Below, in pieces: positions 1 to 34,329 of a DNA stretch of 38,006 nucleotides. The notes under the pieces are model-generated. The model was not told the origin of the DNA. It saw nothing but the letters and a program-made list of their open reading frames with translations, and ran no database searches. Made by a program: the position numbers and the translations under genes. The DNA is from a virus. Its lineage: Duplodnaviria > Heunggongvirae > Uroviricota > Caudoviricetes. The stretch is taken from positions 1 through 38,006 of the IMG/VR virus record IMGVR_UViG_2778261277_000017; one strand, 5' to 3'. Numbering within the stretch: the stretch's first letter is position 1; every line of letters begins with the position of its first letter.

Positions 1-1164
1 TTACACATCATTAGTACCTTCCTTATTTTTTGACTGGGACAAATTTGGGACCGATGGGTTCAGAATCGAGTCTATTTGCCGTGCGTGTTCGGTAAGGTGA
101 TTAGGCGCGAGGTGAGCATATCGACGAACCATTTCGATAGACTCCCAGCCACCCATTTCCTGTAACACTGACAACGGGACTCCGGCTTGAACCAGCCAAC
201 TTGCCCAGGTGTGTCTCAAGTCGTGAAATCTGAAATCATCAATACCAGCCCGTCTCAGCGCCGTTTTCCAGGCTGTGTTTGCGTCATACCGCATCTTCCT
301 TACTGTTGGCGCTTTCGTTCCGTCTGGTTTGGTACAGCTTTCCTTGTACACAAATACCCAACGGTGATGATTCCCGATTTGTTTTTTCAATACGCGACAT
401 GCAGTATCATTCAGCGCAACGCCAATTGCGCGGTTTGATTTACTCTCTTCCGGGTTTATCCATGCCACCCGGCGCTGCATATCTATTTGTTGCCATTCAA
501 GGTTGATGATGTTCGAGCGTCTTAAGCCTGTTGCCAGTGCAAATTCAACAACAGACTTTAATGGCTCCGGACATTCATCAATCAGCCTTTGTGCTTCATG
601 GGGCTCCAGCCAGCGGATCCGTTTATTCTTTGGTTGAGGCACTTTAATAATTGGTGCCTTATCCAGCATTTTCCATTCACGCTCTGCGGCTCTTAGTAGG
701 GCCTTTATAAATGAAAGATGCGTAGCCTTCGTTGCAACGGACGCTGGTTTTGGCGTGTATTCTGGAACAGGTTTCCCTTTTTTTCTGCATGCTTCTGCCC
801 TGAGTTTCCAGTTTTCCTCATGACGCCGGTTCGTCATTTTCTGCATTGCTGAATAAATTTTTGATTCAGTAATGTCTCTTAGTTGCATCCCTGCGAAATG
901 TTGAAGCCAGAATCCGATCCGGCTTTTGTCATCGTCCAGTGATTTCTTATGTGCTTTCTCTTCGAGCCACCTGACACACGCTTCCTCAAACGTCATATCA
1001 GGTATTTCACCAAGTTTGCTGACCCGCCATGCTTCAGCCTTTAGCTTGTCATGGAGCTCTGTCGCCTGCCTTTTGTCCTTTGTTCCAAGAGACTGTTTAA
1101 ATCTTTTACCGTTCGGCAATGTGAAACTGGCGTACCATATTTCACTTCTGCGGAAGAGTGACAT
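1..1164 (-). CDS. int: Tyrosine integrase (site-specific recombinase), not lambda-type; resembles e14/phage-21-group integrases from memory
   Basis: 387-aa ORF with C-terminal R..HDLRHT..Y-type catalytic region ([17 protein letters not shown]). Excisionase-like gene overlaps its 5' end. Stop codon is at bases 1-3. Confidence 0.9.
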
Positions 1165-3321: not shown

Positions 3322-4103
3322 GCTGCCACCTTCTGCTCAGTGGCTTTCTGTTTCAGGAATCCAAGAGCTTTCACTGCTTCGGCCTGTGTCAGTTCTGACG
3401 ATGCGCGAATGTCGCGGCGAAATATCTGGGAACAGAGCGGCAATAAGTCGTCATCCCATGTTTTATCCAGGGCGATCAGCAGAGTGTTAATCTCCTGCAT
3501 GGTTTCATCGTTAACCGGAGTGATGTCGCGTTCTGGCTGACGTTCTGCAGTGTATGCAGTATTTTCGACAATGCGCTCGGCTTCATCCTTGTCATAGATA
3601 CCAGCAAATCCGAAGGCCAGACGGGCACACTGAATCATGGCTTTATGCCGTAACATCCGTTTGGGATGCGACTGCCACGGCCCCGTGATTTCTCTGCCTT
3701 CGCGAGTTTTGAATGGTTCGCGGCGGCATTCATCCATCCATTCGGTAACGCAGATCGGATGATTACGGTCCTTGCGGTAAATCCGGCATGTACAGGATTC
3801 ATTGTCCTGCTCAAAGTCCATGCCATCAAACTGCTGGTTTTCATTGATGATGCGGGACCAGCCATCAACGCCCACCACCGGAACGATGCCGTTCTGCTTA
3901 TCAGGGAAGGCGTAAATTTCTTTCGTCCACGGATTAAGGCCGTACTGGTTGGCGACGATCAACAATGCGATGAACTGCGCATCGCTGGCATCACCTTTAA
4001 ATGCCGTCTGGCGAAGAGTGGTGATCAGTTCCTGTGGGTCGACAGAATCCATGCCGACACGTTCAGCCAGCTTCCCTGCCAGCGTTGCGAGTGCTGTACT
4101 CAT
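3318..4103 (-). CDS. bet: Lambda Beta single-strand annealing protein (Red beta)
   Basis: 261-aa translation matches recalled lambda Bet ([66 protein letters not shown]...). ATGA overlap with exo. Confidence 0.95.
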
Positions 4104-7851: not shown

Positions 7852-8568
<717 letters not shown>

Positions 8569-14499: not shown

Positions 14500-14618
14500 T
14501 AACTGAGCCGTAGCCACTGGCTATCATGAATTCATCAGTGATAGTTACGCTGCGGCCTTCTTTTTTTCCCCTTCCCAATATAAGAACTACGCAATCCGTT
14601 ACTGGCGGAGGCGTTGCT

Positions 14619-14834
14619 ATGAAATCAATGGACAAAATCTCAACTGGCATTGCCTACGGAACATCTGCTGGTAGTGCGGGATACTGGTTTTTGCAGTGGT
14701 TGGATCAGGTCAGTCCGTCACAGTGGGCTGCGATTGGAGTGCTTGGAAGCCTTGTGTTGGGTTTTCTCACTTATCTGACAAATCTGTATTTCAAAATCAG
14801 AGAAGACAGACGAAAGGCTGCGAGAGGTGAATAA
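14619..14834 (+). CDS. S: Pinholin, phage-21 S21 type, with dual-start motif
   Basis: 71-aa [71 protein letters not shown]; two transmembrane segments; Met1/Met4 dual start; GGAGG Shine-Dalgarno. Confidence 0.9.
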
Positions 14835-15331
14835 TGCCTCCATCATTACGAAAAGCCGTTGCTGCTGCTATTGGTGGCGGGGCTATTGCCATAGCATCTG
14901 TGTTAATCACTGGCCCAAGTGGTAACGATGGTCTGGAAGGTGTGAGACATAATCCTTACAAAGACATAGTTGGTGTATGGACTGTATGTTACGGGCATAC
15001 AGGAAAAGACATCATTCCCGGTAAAACGTATACCGAAGCAGAATGCAAAGCCCTCCTGAATAAAGACCTTGCCACGGTCGCCAGACAAATTAACCCGTAC
15101 ATCAAAGTCGATATACCGGAAACAACGCGCGGCGCTCTTTACTCGTTCGTCTACAACGTGGGTGCTGGCAATTTCAGAACATCGACGCTTCTTCGCAAAA
15201 TAAACCAGGGCGATATCAAAGGCGCATGTGACCAGCTACGTCGCTGGACATACGCTGGCGGTAAGCAATGGAAAGGGCTGATGACTCGCCGTGAGATTGA
15301 GCGTGAAGTCTGTTTGTGGGGGCAGCAATGA
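14834..15331 (+). CDS. R: SAR endolysin (lysozyme with N-terminal signal-anchor-release domain), phage-21 R21 type
   Basis: 165-aa [30 protein letters not shown]... with Gly/Ala-rich SAR segment, then a T4-lysozyme-like domain. Confidence 0.95.
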
Positions 15332-15771
15332 GCAGGTTAACCGCGATTATCTCCGCTCTGGTTATCTGCATCATCGTCTGCCTGTCATGGGCTGTTAATC
15401 ATTACCGTGATAACGCCATCGCCTACAAAGAGCAGCGCGATAAAGCCACGTACATCATCGCTGACATGCAGAAGCGTCAACGTGATGTAGCAGAACTCGA
15501 CGCCAGATACACAAAGGAGCTTGCTGATGCTAACGCGACTATCGAAAGTATTCGTGCTGATGTTTCTGCTGGTCGTAAGTGGCTGCGCGTCAAAGCAGTC
15601 TGTCCGGACATGCATAAAACCACCGCCGCCTCCGGCGTGGATGATGGCGCCAGCCCCAGACTTACTGACACCGCTCAACGGGATTATTTCGTTCTCAGAG
15701 AGCGCATCGAAACCATAACTAACCAATTGAATGGCCTGCAAGAGTATGTGAGATCACAGTGTTCATATTAG
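15328..15771 (+). CDS. Rz: Rz i-spanin
   Basis: ATGA overlap with R; N-terminal transmembrane segment ([20 protein letters not shown]) and coiled-coil periplasmic domain. Confidence 0.85.
15521..15718 (+). CDS. Rz1: Rz1 o-spanin lipoprotein, embedded in Rz in the +1 frame
   Basis: Lipobox LVVSGC and proline-rich body ([26 protein letters not shown]); lies wholly inside Rz. Confidence 0.8.
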
Positions 15772-27897: not shown

Positions 27898-28085
27898 CGT
27901 TTAACAGCCTGCCTGACGGGCTGTCCTACCTTCTCAATCCGGTTGACGCCGGGTTAATTCCTTATACAGCACTTAAAGATGGCTCTGTCGATTTGTACGA
28001 CATTGCTCTCTTGAATGACCATCTGGCGGTAAAAGCGGATAACCAGCGGCGCATTGAGAAATGGAGAGAGGATAATGAACGCTGA
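27843..28085 (+). other. Programmed -1 translational frameshift site and chaperone extension frame
   Basis: X_XXY_YYZ heptamer A_AAT_TTT at 27843-27849; the -1 frame stays open to a TGA at 28083-28085, overlapping the tape measure start. Confidence 0.5.
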
Positions 28086-30063
28086 AACTATTAAAGATTT
28101 CCTCGTCTCGCTTGGCTTCAGTGTGGATGATGCAGGAGCGAAAAAGTTCGGTTCTGTCCTCGCCGGTACAACTGCAAATGTCATCAAAATGGGGCTGGCC
28201 GTCGAAGGAACTGCACTGTCCGTGGTGGCCTTCACGGCTAAGATCGCCTCCGGTCTGGATAATCTTTACTGGGCGTCACAGCGCACCGGCGCGACGGTCC
28301 ATGGAATTCAGTCTATTGGCTATGCGGTTTCGCAGGTTGGCGGCAGTGCAGACGCTGCGCGCGGGTCACTGGAGAGCCTTGCCCGTTTTATCCGTAATAG
28401 CCCCGGGGCTGAGGGATTTCTGAATCGTCTGGGGGTACAGACACGGGATGCCAGCGGTAACATGCGTGACATGGCCGCTATTTTTACAGGTGTAGGCCAG
28501 AAGCTCAGCGGCATGCCGTATTACCGGGCTAACCAGTATGCGCAGATGCTGGGCATTGACGAAAATACCCTTATGGCGATGCGCCGGGGTGTGGGTGGCT
28601 TCTCCGGGCAGTACAGCGCAATGGCGAAAGCTATCGGCTTCAATGCTGACGAGGCGGCCAGAAGCTCCAACAAATTTATGACCTCCCTGCGTGAGTTTAG
28701 CGCGATGGCAGGCATGGCCCGTGACAAAATCGGCTCTAATCTTGCGGGTGGGCTTGCGGGTTCGCTGGACACCCTGCGCCGCCATATCCTGGACAACTTC
28801 CCTCGTATCGAGCTGACCCTGACGAAAGCCATAAAAGGCATTCTGGCGCTCGGGGATATTATCGGGCGGCTGTTCTTCAGACTGATTGAAGGAACATCAG
28901 GCCTCATCACCTGGTGGCAATCGCTGGATAAGCAAACGCGGGAGCTCATCTCGCTGTTTGGCGCGCTGACGATTGCGCTGCGCATTCTGAACAGTACGTT
29001 CTGGATGTCGCCGATTGGCCTCATTACCGCGCTGGCGGCGGGGATTGCCCTTCTGTGGGAGGACTATCAGACCTGGAAGGAAGGCGGCGACAGCCTGATT
29101 GACTGGGGCAAGTGGAAGCCGGAGGTCGATGCCGCGCTGAAGATGGTTCGTGACCTGAAAGGGTCTGTTAATGAACTGGCGAAAGCGCTGGCGAAACTGC
29201 TCAATATTGACCCCAAATCATGGTCCCTGAAGTGGGATTTCAGCAACTTCATCGACCAGATGGGCGAATTCAGCAAAATGCTGAACATGATCGCCGACCT
29301 GCTCAACGCTATCAAAGATGGCCGCTGGGCTGATGCCGTCAGCATCGGCAAACAGATACTTAATCAGGGCAGCGAAAATCCGTCAGCGATGCCGATGGTT
29401 ACAGACAGCGCTAACAGTACTGCCGACTGGATTAAAGAGCACTGGGGATTCGATCCCCGCAGTGTGGGCCGGACGGTACGCGGCTGGTTTGGTGATGATG
29501 AGCCGGAACAATATGCACAGGCTACGAAACGAGGAGAACGGAATAACAATCCGGGAAACCTTAATTTTGCTGGTCAGGCAGGGGCTTCTCTTGAACGCCC
29601 GGGCGGGCGATTTGCCAGATTTGAAACTGCTTTTGATGGATTACGGGCTCTTGCTCGTCAGTTAATGCTGTACGCCGGACGGGGAATAAACAGTGTGGAG
29701 AAAATTATCTCTACCTGGGCACCTGCGTCTGATAATAACAACACAACTGCGTATATCAGGGCTGTATCGCAACGACTGGGAGTGGATCCCCGGGCTGCCC
29801 TGAATATGAGCGATCCGCAAACCATGTCAGCATTGATGAGCAGCATTATCCAGCATGAAAATGGAAGAAATATCTATTCTCGAGAGCTGATTAATAAGGC
29901 TGCCGTGGCGGGAATTAGTGGCAAAATGACAGAGGTTAACCAGCAAAATACTTACCACATTTACGGTGGCGGAGATCCGCACGCTGTCGGTAATGAGGTT
30001 GCACGTCGGCAACAGTCTGCAAATGCTCAGGTCATGCGAAGTAATCAGGTGAGGGTGGGTTAG
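28075..30063 (+). CDS. Tail tape measure protein
   Basis: 662-aa ORF from the ATG at 28075 (GAGAGGA Shine-Dalgarno); long helical, Ala/Gly-rich N-terminal part typical of tape measure proteins. Confidence 0.85.
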   Translation: MNAETIKDFLVSLGFSVDDAGAKKFGSVLAGTTANVIKMGLAVEGTALSVVAFTAKIASGLDNLYWASQRTGATVHGIQSIGYAVSQVGGSADAARGSLESLARFIRNSPGAEGFLNRLGVQTRDASGNMRDMAAIFTGVGQKLSGMPYYRANQYAQMLGIDENTLMAMRRGVGGFSGQYSAMAKAIGFNADEAARSSNKFMTSLREFSAMAGMARDKIGSNLAGGLAGSLDTLRRHILDNFPRIELTLTKAIKGILALGDIIGRLFFRLIEGTSGLITWWQSLDKQTRELISLFGALTIALRILNSTFWMSPIGLITALAAGIALLWEDYQTWKEGGDSLIDWGKWKPEVDAALKMVRDLKGSVNELAKALAKLLNIDPKSWSLKWDFSNFIDQMGEFSKMLNMIADLLNAIKDGRWADAVSIGKQILNQGSENPSAMPMVTDSANSTADWIKEHWGFDPRSVGRTVRGWFGDDEPEQYAQATKRGERNNNPGNLNFAGQAGASLERPGGRFARFETAFDGLRALARQLMLYAGRGINSVEKIISTWAPASDNNNTTAYIRAVSQRLGVDPRAALNMSDPQTMSALMSSIIQHENGRNIYSRELINKAAVAGISGKMTEVNQQNTYHIYGGGDPHAVGNEVARRQQSANAQVMRSNQVRVG

Positions 30064-30954: not shown

Positions 30955-32022
30955 ATGTCACAGAACTGGATGAGACATTTCGAGCTGCAGCTTGTGGACG
31001 GGAACGGTCAGGGAATTGAGCTAAGTGATTTCAAAGTCACCTTTACGATCGACTGGTTCAACATCAGCAGCGCGTCCCGGGTAGGGACTATCAAAATTTA
31101 TAACCTTTCGGCAGATACTGTGAACCGAATTACCGGGCAGGAGTTTTCGAAAGTGCGGCTGATTGCCGGTTACGACGGTATCGCGCCGGAGGTGGCGGCA
31201 AGCGACGTCGGGACCGTGCGCGAAGTCGACGCGGCAGATGTGGGCCAGAGTGATGGCCGCAACTACGGGCTGATTTTCAGCGGAGAAATTCGCTACTCGG
31301 TCACAGGAAAAGACAGCCCTATTGATTCCTATGTCCTGATTCAGGCAGCAGATACGGATCTGGCATTTGCCACCAGTATAACCTCGCAGACGCTGGCGGC
31401 CGGTTACACGGTCGCAGATGTGAACCGTGCGCTGATGAAAGACTTTGAGGCCAAAGGCGCGACCGAAGGACTGACGCCTGAAATGCCTGCTACCGTATTC
31501 CCTCGAGGGCGGGTGCTGTTCGGCATGACACTGCATCTTATGGATAACGTGGCCGGACAATGTGGCGCAACATGGCAATTTGTGGACGGTCAGCGCCAGA
31601 TGGTGGCGAATAACGAGTATGTTCACGACGCGATTGTGCTCAACAGCGCCACCGGGCTTATCGGCATGCCGCAGCAGACTATCGGCAACGGTGTAAACGT
31701 CCGCGCTCTTATTAATCCGAACATCCGGGTTAACGGGCTTATTCAGCTGGATCAGGCTTCCGTGTACCGCACCGCGCTGTCGAACAATGATATTGCGATG
31801 GCTGGTGGGCAGATCACCGACCAGAACACGGACGGAAATATCACGCTCAGCGGCACCACAGCACAACCTGCCAGCATCGCAACGGATGGCGTTTATATTG
31901 TGCGCGGGATTATGTACACTGGCGATACAAGGGGCCAGGCGTGGTACATGGATATGATGTGCGAAGCGCGTGGCGCGGCGGATCTTCGTTCTGCGTCGTC
32001 TTTACAGCGTGAGGTAGGATAG
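30955..32022 (+). CDS. Baseplate hub-like protein
   Basis: 355-aa ORF following the tape measure-proximal genes. Confidence 0.5.
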   Translation: MSQNWMRHFELQLVDGNGQGIELSDFKVTFTIDWFNISSASRVGTIKIYNLSADTVNRITGQEFSKVRLIAGYDGIAPEVAASDVGTVREVDAADVGQSDGRNYGLIFSGEIRYSVTGKDSPIDSYVLIQAADTDLAFATSITSQTLAAGYTVADVNRALMKDFEAKGATEGLTPEMPATVFPRGRVLFGMTLHLMDNVAGQCGATWQFVDGQRQMVANNEYVHDAIVLNSATGLIGMPQQTIGNGVNVRALINPNIRVNGLIQLDQASVYRTALSNNDIAMAGGQITDQNTDGNITLSGTTAQPASIATDGVYIVRGIMYTGDTRGQAWYMDMMCEARGAADLRSASSLQREVG

Positions 32023-32375
32023 TGAAAAAGTGGATTGTTATCGGACTCTGTTTCCTTCCGGGGTTAGCATTTGCTGCGAATCCTGGCGGTATCACGCTTC
32101 AGTGTGGTGGCTACAAATTAGAGTTGATTCCTGATTCATTGTTCAGGATTAATGGTGAGACAGTTACCTCTCAGAAAATCAAAACGCTCGGCAACGGTAA
32201 TGGAATGAAGGCGGATATGGGTCTTATGCCAGCCAAAGACGGTAACAATTACGCTTTCGAGTTCATTCGTCGCCCTGGTACCGAAACGCGTTTCCTGAAC
32301 GTCCAGCTTCTGCAGAACAGCATGGATGCACCGAAAATCATCGGCTCCTTCCCGTGTAAAAAGGTTGATGGTTAA
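32022..32375 (+). CDS. Small secreted protein with Sec signal peptide, embedded in the baseplate module
   Basis: MKKWIVIGLCFLPGLAFA|ANPGG: n-region, hydrophobic core and AxA cleavage motif; no lipobox Cys. 117 aa. Lower GC than flanking tail genes. Confidence 0.6.
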   Translation: MKKWIVIGLCFLPGLAFAANPGGITLQCGGYKLELIPDSLFRINGETVTSQKIKTLGNGNGMKADMGLMPAKDGNNYAFEFIRRPGTETRFLNVQLLQNSMDAPKIIGSFPCKKVDG

Positions 32376-32515
32376 CCAAAAGTTACATTTCTGCATAGTG
32401 TTGAGTTTGTTCACATTCACTAAATAATGATTTTTTATCGCTTGCTAGGTGGTTGCATGATCACTAAACTTTGCGAACTTTTAGCGCTCAGCTAACTTTG
32501 AATAAGTGGTGTATA

Positions 32516-32530
32516 GTCGTTTAAAACGAC
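32516..32530 (+). promoter_or_regulatory. Palindromic candidate operator overlapping a -10-like TATAGT upstream of the 190-aa gene
   Basis: GTCGTTT-A-AAACGAC perfect 7-bp inverted repeat; TATAGT at 32512-32517; about 14 nt upstream of the AGAGGGA Shine-Dalgarno of the next gene. Confidence 0.4.
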
Positions 32531-32543
32531 AGAGGGATTGGGT

Positions 32544-33116
32544 ATGGCGATTAGCTACGCATTTGCGCTGGCAACAATTACACAACAAATGAATCAGGTT
32601 CAGGAAGCTGTTAACGGTGCTTTCAAACCCCTGATCTCTAATGCTTGTGAACTGCCACAACGATTAGATGCTGAAGAGGTATTTCGTCGTTGTACCGCGA
32701 TTGCTGCACGCGCTCAAGAAATCGAAAATACCGCGAAGGAAGGCATGTCTCATCTCGAAGCTTTTCGAAATGGGAGAATCATTGTTGATGAGCTTCCGGA
32801 AGAGTTTTTATCCCATCTCGAAGGTCTTGCCAAGGCATGCCGAAATGCTAAAGGACATTTAGTGGATATGTTCTCTGAAGCGGAAAGGTCCCCTATGTGG
32901 CAAGGCCATCTGCAAATGTTGCGCCCATTAAAACGCAAATATGTTCGTGCGTTGACCGCCGTCGAGAACACTGCAACTCAGTTGGCCGCTGAAGTTAGGC
33001 AATCGCAGCCTTTCCAGGCTGAACTCTTGTCAGATAATGTTACCCGTGAAGAGGCTATTGAACTGATCTCAACATCGCATAAGATGCTGGGAGCCAACGC
33101 CCCTAAATGGATGTGA
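32544..33116 (+). CDS. Hypothetical 190-aa helical protein, upstream partner of the YafO-like gene (candidate antitoxin/regulator of a novel type)
   Basis: ATG at 32544 with AGAGGGA Shine-Dalgarno; 1-nt gap to the downstream gene. Far larger than, and unlike, the Phd/YefM-type antitoxin YafN that partners YafO in E. coli. Confidence 0.6.
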   Translation: MAISYAFALATITQQMNQVQEAVNGAFKPLISNACELPQRLDAEEVFRRCTAIAARAQEIENTAKEGMSHLEAFRNGRIIVDELPEEFLSHLEGLAKACRNAKGHLVDMFSEAERSPMWQGHLQMLRPLKRKYVRALTAVENTATQLAAEVRQSQPFQAELLSDNVTREEAIELISTSHKMLGANAPKWM

Positions 33117-33117
33117 C

Positions 33118-33534
33118 ATGGCAAAAGTCAGTATCACGGGAGAATTGCGTCATTTAGCTGCAGCACATAAGTATGCTCAAATGCTTGCCGATTATATTTC
33201 AAAGGGTTCCCAGTTCTGGTGTTTTGGTTCGTTAGGCGGTTTTGAACGTAACTATGATGCGATGGCTGCCAACATCAGGAAAATTCACTTAAAGCTACCT
33301 GGCGATAAACCCTGGCCTCCAGAAGCATCTCTGAGTGAACGGACATGTGATAATTTTTTGGTATATGCTCAGCATCTTTATATCGATGAACACTATCAGA
33401 TATTGGCAATCATCAGCCCAAACGCTCATCAGCAAGCTGATTCGATGCTTCCCCGGCTGATAAAATTAGCAGAGGAAACCTTCATAGAACTTCCTCCTGA
33501 TGAACTCGAAAAATTGAAAACCTACGATTCATAA
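33118..33534 (+). CDS. YafO-family toxin-like protein (ribosome-dependent mRNA interferase family), tentative
   Basis: 138-aa ORF. Segments ADYISKG, KIHLKLPGDKPWPP, FLVYAQHLYIDEHYQILAIISPNAH and RLIKLAEETF align with what I recall of E. coli YafO (ADFISYK, HIHLANENNPFPP, HLVYCQGAFDEQAWLLIAILKPEPH, KIGKMAEAF). Recall-based, unverified. Confidence 0.6.
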   Translation: MAKVSITGELRHLAAAHKYAQMLADYISKGSQFWCFGSLGGFERNYDAMAANIRKIHLKLPGDKPWPPEASLSERTCDNFLVYAQHLYIDEHYQILAIISPNAHQQADSMLPRLIKLAEETFIELPPDELEKLKTYDS

Positions 33535-33535
33535 A

Positions 33536-33557
33536 CCCGCCACCCGGCGGGTTTTTT
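33536..33557 (+). terminator. Strong rho-independent terminator closing the cargo cassette
   Basis: CCCGCC-ACCC-GGCGGG hairpin followed by TTTTTT, directly after the stop codon at 33534. Confidence 0.8.
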
Positions 33558-33576
33558 GCTTTCTGGAGCCTACTAA

Positions 33577-34329
33577 ATGGCAGTATCTGACCAGACCCGC
33601 AGCGGCGACCTTGCCGAAACATTCAAATCTGAACGGGAAACAACAAAGAATCAGATCCGTGTCGCCTTGCCTGGCATTATTCAGTCATTCGATCCTGATG
33701 CGGTGACGGCGGTTGTGCAGCCTGCTATCCGTTCGGTTGAAAAGGATAATGACGGCAACCGCATTACCAAAAATTACCCATTGTTGGTGGATGTTCCAGT
33801 GGTATTCCCACGTGGCGGAGGATGTACGCTAACGTTTCCGATTAAAGCCGGGGATGAGTGTCTTGTCGTTTTTGCCGATCGTTGTATTGATTTCTGGTGG
33901 CAGAGCGGCGGAATACAGGAACCGGTCGATGACAGAATGCATGATTTATCGGATGCGTTTTGTATTGTAGGCCCCCAGTCGCAGGCGAGGAAGATTAGCG
34001 GTATTAATACCAGTGCCACACAGTTGCGTAGTGACGATGGCAGCACCTATTTTGAGCTTAATCCTGATACCAGGAAAATTAAAATTGTCGCTCCGGGTGG
34101 TCTTGATGTGGTTGCCCCTCTGGCTGATTTTTCTGAGAAAGTAACCATTCATGGCCTGTTAACCTGGATGGGGGGCATGGTGGGGTCTGTTGTTTCTGGT
34201 GTGGCTTCAAAAATCACTGGTGTTGTTGAGTTTTTGGGTAGCGTGAAGGCTAACGGCAAGCCAATCGATGATACGCACACTCATGGCGGTGTTCAGCGCG
34301 GTGGAAGCAATACCGATGGGGTAAACTGA
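33577..34329 (+). CDS. Baseplate spike / gpV-like protein
   Basis: 250-aa ORF with GGAG Shine-Dalgarno; Gly-rich C-terminus (THTHGGVQRGGSNT) typical of gpV-like spike proteins. Confidence 0.55.
   Translation: MAVSDQTRSGDLAETFKSERETTKNQIRVALPGIIQSFDPDAVTAVVQPAIRSVEKDNDGNRITKNYPLLVDVPVVFPRGGGCTLTFPIKAGDECLVVFADRCIDFWWQSGGIQEPVDDRMHDLSDAFCIVGPQSQARKISGINTSATQLRSDDGSTYFELNPDTRKIKIVAPGGLDVVAPLADFSEKVTIHGLLTWMGGMVGSVVSGVASKITGVVEFLGSVKANGKPIDDTHTHGGVQRGGSNTDGVN

Follow-up and report, generated by a model that had tools for sequence, protein, structure and literature searches.

ORF117, a gene coupled to the baseplate hub of SEN34/Brunovirus-like prophages, very probably encodes an exported periplasmic accessory protein

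The stretch of viral DNA analysed here (IMG/VR record IMGVR_UViG_2778261277_000017, Caudoviricetes, referred to below at its full length of 38,006 nucleotides as the window) constitutes a complete prophage, that of a temperate myovirus of the lambdoid type, and the gene under study, ORF117, is an open reading frame (ORF) of 117 aa located directly behind the baseplate hub gene. ORF117 is very probably an exported periplasmic accessory protein, which is neither structural nor a part of the toxin/antitoxin (TA) cassette found downstream of it. A fuller account, plausible if somewhat short of probable, is that this SEN34/Brunovirus-like temperate myovirus uses ORF117 as an accessory protein outside the virion, one that acts on the envelope-crossing step, and an exclusion or anti-entry mechanism is a possibility that we advance more tentatively still.

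The gene is present with the position and length that a preliminary description of the sequence had given it, on the plus strand and with a GTG start (Table 1), and it does begin at the hub stop codon: the GTG (32022-32024) shares G32022 with the TAG of the hub gene (32020-32022), so that the stop of the one overlaps the start of the other. When scanned with hmmscan against the PHROG collection, residues 9-116 of ORF117 matched positions 6-114 (of 115) of phrog_3443 with E = 2.4e-45, a family whose function is given as unknown, and 366 database homologues were found at E ≤ 1e-3, most of them 110-117 aa long and from Enterobacterales. One E. coli homologue, WP_062810240.1 (68% identical to ORF117), carries the label "STY1065/STY2022 family phage-derived protein" of the Prokaryotic Genome Annotation Pipeline (PGAP). 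The pairwise ratio of nonsynonymous to synonymous substitution rates (dN/dS) of the mature domain was 0.10 (0.15 for its N-terminal half and 0.07 for its C-terminal half), whereas the hub, spike and gp25-like genes had ratios of 0.12, 0.16 and 0.09, respectively; the signal peptide segment gave 0.66. Given the homologues, the phrog_3443 match and the ratio of 0.10, ORF117 is confirmed by comparative sequence data as a real gene, far beyond chance, and strong purifying selection on its mature domain is strongly supported by the same ratios. The family is therefore already catalogued, without a characterised function, and the gene itself is not new; a literature search found no functional data on STY1065, STY2022, phrog_3443 or SEN34. 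It is also a narrow family, since no more than 44 clusters (at 50% identity), including a few repetitive false positives, were recovered when 1.84 billion representatives were searched exhaustively with a profile. The G+C content of ORF117 (46.9%) had been described as lower than that of the tail genes, which holds relative to the upstream hub (55.3%) and the tape-measure protein (TMP) gene (54.0%) but not relative to the spike (49.8%), J (48.8%) and DUF2612 (47.6%) genes or the mean of the window (49.6%), to which it is similar. A programmed frameshift joining the hub to ORF117 was considered and rejected: a slippery heptamer is absent, and other alleles start with an ATG located 5-9 nt past the hub stop codon.

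The N-terminus of ORF117 (MKKWIVIGLCFLPGLAFA, followed by ANPGG) has two lysines, a hydrophobic core of 14 residues and A-F-A at positions -3 to -1, and its Cys10 is located outside any lipobox context. All three regions expected of a Sec signal peptide are thus present, in agreement with the earlier assignment of an AFA-A cleavage motif without lipobox, and a rule based on a K or R near the start, at least 7 hydrophobic residues out of 10, and small residues at -3 and -1 was satisfied in all 106 of the related loci scored (106/106), even though the sequence of the signal peptide varies. In every family member examined the signal peptide precedes the first conserved cysteine, including in members that are only 28-37% identical to ORF117, namely those of Klebsiella phage ST16-OXA48phi5.2, Citrobacter phage Omnitron and ST340-VIM1phi10.1. 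Two cysteines are kept throughout the family, Cys28 and Cys112, which the alignment and a structural model (see below) place in the first and the last strand, respectively; the pair fits a periplasmic disulfide, and the barrel is probably closed by a Cys28-Cys112 bond. An 11-member subfamily of approximately 290 aa is encoded in the same slot directly after the hub and displays a canonical LSGC lipobox and, towards the N-terminus, an additional helical domain that has a cysteine pair to itself, the ORF117-like barrel domain being at the C-terminus. This additional N-terminal domain was found nowhere else. Taken over the family, Sec-dependent export of mostly soluble, non-lipoprotein products, with predicted cleavage by signal peptidase I, is strongly supported by these sequence features. 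The signal peptides, the cysteine pair and the lipobox subfamily are hard to reconcile with a tail component assembled in the cytoplasm, and a role of the family as a tail part is disfavoured because the lipobox subfamily shares the slot and a lipoprotein cannot be a tail part. The deposited annotations of some homologues begin at internal methionines and have consequently lost the signal peptide (SEN34_20, L001:3968-4309; QBP28333.1, L007:3938-4279; and QBP27692.1, L114 approximately 3520-3864); the full ORFs of these three open at a TTG, GTG or ATG just past the hub stop codon.

Tails of this type are built in the absence of the gene. Homologues of the hub are present in 138 phage records, and four of these phages have no family member near the hub, as confirmed by a hidden Markov model (HMM) search of six-frame translations, while carrying homologous hub, plug, spike, gp25-like and J genes. 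In Hafnia phage yong1, whose hub is 77% identical, an unrelated, non-secreted gene of 136 aa takes the place of ORF117; in Providencia phage PSTCR3 and Acinetobacter phage Ab105-1phi the hub is followed directly by the spike; and in Burkholderia phage Magia a different secreted protein of 123 aa is encoded on the opposite strand in the slot between hub and spike. The latter (gp21; L116:3457-3828, minus strand) has a clear signal peptide, and the slot seems to attract exported proteins. Because these four phages do without it, ORF117 is dispensable for this tail type. The picture of a non-lipoprotein, exported product encoded between hub and spike, as first described, is upheld, and as far as the genome comparisons go ORF117 is an accessory acquisition that became fixed in an Enterobacterales clade, not a baseplate building block.

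The position of the gene was scrutinized in 108 related loci gathered from phage records, GTDB genomes and IMG/VR contigs. Wherever hub and family member were on the same contig, the latter started within approximately 10 nt of the hub end (-1 to +9 nt in nearly all cases), which leaves no room for another gene or a promoter between the two. Since the start of ORF117 is coupled to the hub and no promoter-like site lies ahead of it, the gene appears to be co-expressed with the late tail genes, and its translation from the late tail transcript, directly behind the hub, is strongly supported. The distance from ORF117 to the spike, on the other hand, ranges from 1 nt (Serratia, L021, and Rahnella, L025) to 2,355 nt (median, close to 1.1 kb), and in about 100 loci this slot is filled in more than 40 different ways, including by membrane-anchored proteins, secreted small proteins and two-gene cassettes; a Pfam search of the slot cargo gave no match for any of them. 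ORF117 had been regarded as a gene inserted among baseplate genes, and instead it is a conserved, hub-coupled gene in about 100 related loci. From the gene order it is the conserved left edge of a cargo hotspot, and in this window it is neither hotspot cargo nor a member of the TA cassette.

That cassette (32401-33554) is a self-contained two-gene unit, comprised of a promoter-like site, ORF190, a YafO-family toxin gene and a strong terminator. Its presumed antitoxin, ORF190, is approximately twice the size of a typical YafN-type antitoxin. The suggestion that ORF117 might be a third member of this cassette, and be linked to it in homologous prophages, did not survive the comparison, as the ORF190 and YafO pair is present in only 11 of the 99 loci that carry both ORF117 and a spike. 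An Rfam scan of 31800-33700 returned sub-threshold matches only.

A striking feature of ORF117 is the mosaicism of its 5' half. When the window was compared with the near-identical prophages L005, L072 and L106, identity at the nucleotide level stood at 97-100% in the 3' part of the hub gene up to position 31980 or so, dropped to 37-55% over 31981-32160, and returned to 100% by approximately 32280; in the flanks of this island, occasional 60-nt windows go down to 88%. Judged by these alignments, the 5' half of ORF117 is a recombination island. At least five old allele classes of ORF117 exist, and they combine freely with the types of hub, TMP, spike and cargo. In Pseudescherichia vulneris NBRC 102420 (L014:1-2919, NZ_BBMZ01000043.1) we found four tandem units of approximately 624 nt, each consisting of a C-terminal fragment of the hub and a divergent ORF117 paralogue with its own signal peptide; this array, the only case among 113 loci, is located on a 5.8-kb draft contig. 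The shuffling of alleles between near-identical phages together with the four-copy array suggests that allele identity matters. Variation is also seen in the C-terminal lysin domain of the TMP (window 28054-30063, paired loci), of which there are at least two sequence types (ERNNNPGNLNFAGQ... and DRNNNPGNIRPVGG...) that assort independently of the ORF117 alleles.

The AlphaFold2 model of ORF117 (m1dc5976c04b8, built on a 32-sequence alignment) has a predicted local distance difference test score of 84-94 over residues 21-117 and shows seven to eight antiparallel strands forming a small beta-barrel. Fold comparison revealed resemblance to DUF1842, the Cap15 barrel, designed barrels and small outer-membrane barrels; the type VI secretion system immunity protein BtaiB scored 6.5, PliC-St and Brucella PhiA 6.3 each, Brucella PliC 5.9, and E. 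coli YdhA/MliC 5.2, while avidins and designed barrels outscored PliC. The model places ORF117 in the generic class of small up-and-down barrels, without a match at the family level. An outer-membrane beta-barrel was rejected on judgement, the mature part being just 97 residues long, highly charged and without a C-terminal aromatic residue. Sequence searches point to no known family: Pfam gave no match to ORF117 at E ≤ 0.01 and none at E ≤ 10 for any of 32 family members, which leaves membership of MliC/PliC (PF09864) unsupported by sequence; NCBIfam (in a set without the STY1065/STY2022 model) and PADLOC gave no match; a search of PDB sequences with the family profile returned chance matches only; and the top match in BFVD, with E = 1.7e-3, was too weak to be informative.

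We propose that ORF117, once exported, works in the periplasm of the infected cell, and in the lysogen too if there is read-through, where it would hinder the envelope-crossing step of an incoming contractile tail. To this end it may bind a component that the tail tip exposes, the most concrete candidate being the lytic transglycosylase end of the TMP, or else a host envelope partner on which the tail depends. The TMP is annotated as a lytic transglycosylase by PGAP, and a Pfam SLT domain is present in relatives, the domain being unrecognised by Pfam in the copy of the window. Such an activity would shield the virocell, and possibly its progeny, against secondary attack or against being triggered to no avail by cell debris, and ORF117 would then be comparable in function to T4 Spackle, TP-J34 Ltp or HK97 gp15.

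Several results weigh against this proposal. Adjusted mutual information between the alleles and every other gene family in about 100 loci identified no partner above background (core tail genes, 0.41-0.47, reflecting background relatedness; spike, 0.36; TMP, 0.31; fibres, 0.09-0.17), and one and the same TMP lysin type occurs with each of the alleles A to D. A search of 5,426 complete E. coli genomes with allele-specific island sequences located allele A in 18 records (18 places), a B subtype in 9 (9), C in 96 (98) and D in 67 (67); the same allele was carried twice in two genomes, both times allele C, against approximately 2.5 doubles expected for the four alleles from roughly 25 extra places overall, and in these small numbers, with an approximate count of double carriers, no depletion of same-allele double carriage is seen. 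The dN/dS test for diversifying selection found purifying selection instead, which makes a fast arms race less likely. Neither sequence nor fold comparison revealed homology to the characterised exclusion proteins Sp, Imm, Cor, Llp, Ltp, SieA and gp15. Finally, a consensus scan detected neither a promoter-like site for ORF117 in 31400-32022 nor a terminator of its own after 32375, and because a promoter-like site of its own is absent, there is no indication that the gene is expressed in the lysogen, the state in which exclusion would bring the greatest benefit.

Among the other explanations considered, the one that fares best, unlikely as it is, holds that ORF117 is a periplasmic inhibitor of peptidoglycan hydrolases like PliC, MliC and PhiA, with the tail-borne lytic transglycosylase, the phage endolysin or lysozymes of the host or an animal as its targets; such inhibition could be the mechanism behind exclusion, or could amount to lysogenic conversion in its own right. 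Neither the Pfam searches, which gave no MliC match in the 32 members, nor the fold comparison, in which avidins and designed barrels came out ahead of PliC, nor the alleles, which do not co-vary with the TMP lysin type, favour it. We give only a small chance to a calycin- or avidin-like ligand-binding barrel that, late in infection, would sequester a periplasmic ligand (a small molecule, a lipid or a muropeptide), and an equally small one to a helper of lysis timing or release, i.e. a modulator of holin, endolysin or spanin, or a mask of receptors on debris that would spare the progeny. Co-expression with the late genes and the export signal suit such a helper, and late timing is easier to square with a role at or after lysis than with a role in the lysogen, but a complete holin-endolysin-Rz cassette is already present 16 kb upstream, no co-variation is seen between alleles and tail fibres, and ORF117 shows no similarity to T4 RI or to spanins.

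A further variant, speculative and with a still slimmer chance, sees the recombination island as an exchangeable "key and lock" cassette, in which the C-terminal tail of the hub, carried into the periplasm at the tip of an arriving phage tail, would be recognised in an allele-specific way by the resident periplasmic barrel. This would amount to kin-specific gating of tail penetration, and spare cassettes could pile up as orphan arrays, of which the four-unit set of P. vulneris could be one, an accumulation that can be likened to the orphan modules of CdiA-CT/CdiI and Rhs. A role of ORF117 in the virion or in tail assembly, its hydrophobic N-terminus not being a cleaved signal peptide, is very improbable. 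In favour of it are the constant location of the gene between two baseplate genes, its translational coupling with the hub, and a dN/dS in line with that of structural genes; yet signal-peptide character and the cysteine pair are kept while the signal sequence drifts, lipobox fusion forms occupy the same slot, one genome has four tandem copies, and yong1, PSTCR3, Magia and Ab105-1phi lack the gene while having the same tail genes. Least of all is ORF117 to be expected as a third component of the YafO-type cassette, for which only their adjacency in this window speaks: that idea is refuted by the comparative data, in which more than 40 other contents fill the slot and the cassette, with a promoter-like site and terminator of its own, pairs with alleles A, B and C alike.

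Returning to the periplasmic accessory protein that we favour, several known systems can be compared with it. T4 Spackle (Sp) is a small periplasmic phage protein with a signal peptide that inhibits the gp5 tail lysozyme; ORF117 shares with it the small size, the signal peptide and the proposed logic of neutralising the tail-borne cell-wall enzyme of an incoming phage, but Spackle is helical and ORF117 a predicted beta-barrel, no sequence or fold match exists between them, and ORF117 is located inside a late tail operon. The likeness of ORF117 to MliC/PliC and to Brucella PhiA is no better than that to avidins or designed barrels. T5 Llp, Cor of phi80, N15 and T1, and TP-J34 Ltp are small exported phage proteins encoded near or within tail or host-recognition genes and act at the envelope, Ltp being a lipoprotein that targets the tape-measure protein. 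These proteins are lipoproteins or have their own promoters, whereas the ORF117 family is mostly of the soluble, signal peptidase I type and ORF117 is without a promoter-like site of its own; moreover, T5 Llp tracks the receptor-binding protein, while the ORF117 alleles do not co-vary with the fibres. Like morons in the sense of Hendrix and Juhala (lambda lom and bor, HK97 gp15), ORF117 is non-essential and located between tail genes, is absent in some relatives, and has a G+C content below that of the upstream genes, but it lacks the autonomous promoter and terminator that define a moron and is translationally coupled to the hub; the neighbouring YafO cassette fits the definition.

Table 1. 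Coordinates of ORF117, its parts and the other features discussed (positions in the window unless a locus is given).
Feature	Coordinates	Strand	Remarks
ORF117 coding sequence	32022..32375	+	117 aa plus stop; GTG start; phrog_3443 member
Predicted Sec signal peptide (aa 1-20)	32022..32081	+	MKKWIVIGLCFLPGLAFA; A-F-A before predicted cleavage site
Mature domain	32082..32372	+	97 aa, ~10.5 kDa, pI 9.1; predicted eight-stranded beta-barrel
Shine-Dalgarno sequence GAGG	32011..32014	+	7 nt upstream of ORF117 GTG; read from sequence
Allelic divergence island	31981..32280	+	last ~14 hub codons, signal peptide, N-terminal half of mature domain
Baseplate hub gene	30955..32022	+	355 aa; phrog_196 baseplate hub, E = 4e-88; weak Pfam E217_GP41
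Lipoprotein subfamily (~290 aa), examples	L109:8001-8879; L110:4625-5503		proteins P0140, P0164-P0173
Sigma-70-like promoter site	32401..32428	+	in the 36.9% G+C spacer downstream of ORF117; belongs to the cassette, not to ORF117
Cassette first gene (ORF190)	32544..33116	+	190 aa; presumed antitoxin partner; phrog_35514; no Pfam family
Cassette second gene (YafO-family toxin)	33118..33534	+	Pfam YafO_toxin, E = 4e-17; PGAP annotation
Intrinsic-terminator-like hairpin	33533..33554	+	closes the cassette; 9 pairs, 6 G-C, then T run
Spike gene	33577..34329	+	limits the variable slot on the right; Pfam spike N-terminal domain, E = 1.4e-44, and Apex motif
Integrase	1-1164	-	
CI-like repressor	7852-8565	-	
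Holin, endolysin and Rz genes	14526-15771		

Besides the genes listed in Table 1, the window encodes a major head protein, a sheath, the TMP and further baseplate genes. A 2.5-kb region of it matches 353 of the 5,426 complete E. coli genomes, and the tail module is also found in Klebsiella, Salmonella (SEN34-like prophages), Serratia, Yersinia and Photorhabdus. SEN34-like Brunovirus prophages bear sopE in Salmonella Paratyphi B (PhiSopE309) (PMC11632088). A record labelled Chryseobacterium sp. 18061 (L018, CACSKA010000001.1) contains a tail module of the enterobacterial type with a hub 93% identical to that of the window, and is probably mislabelled or contaminated.

Since the tail module is common and ORF117 is conserved without an assigned role, a sizeable gap exists in the annotation of these prophages. 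The new elements are a corrected locus map, in which a conserved hub-coupled gene is followed by a cargo hotspot, the evidence that the protein is exported and the gene dispensable, and the predicted fold, as well as the recombination island, the lipoprotein fusion subfamily and the four-copy array. The corrected map, with its hotspot between ORF117 and the spike, helps to locate defence or virulence cargo in such prophages. If ORF117 does block tail penetration or the tail lysin, it would represent a new structural class of entry-level phage resistance, which would be relevant to phage therapy directed against E. coli and Klebsiella lysogens.

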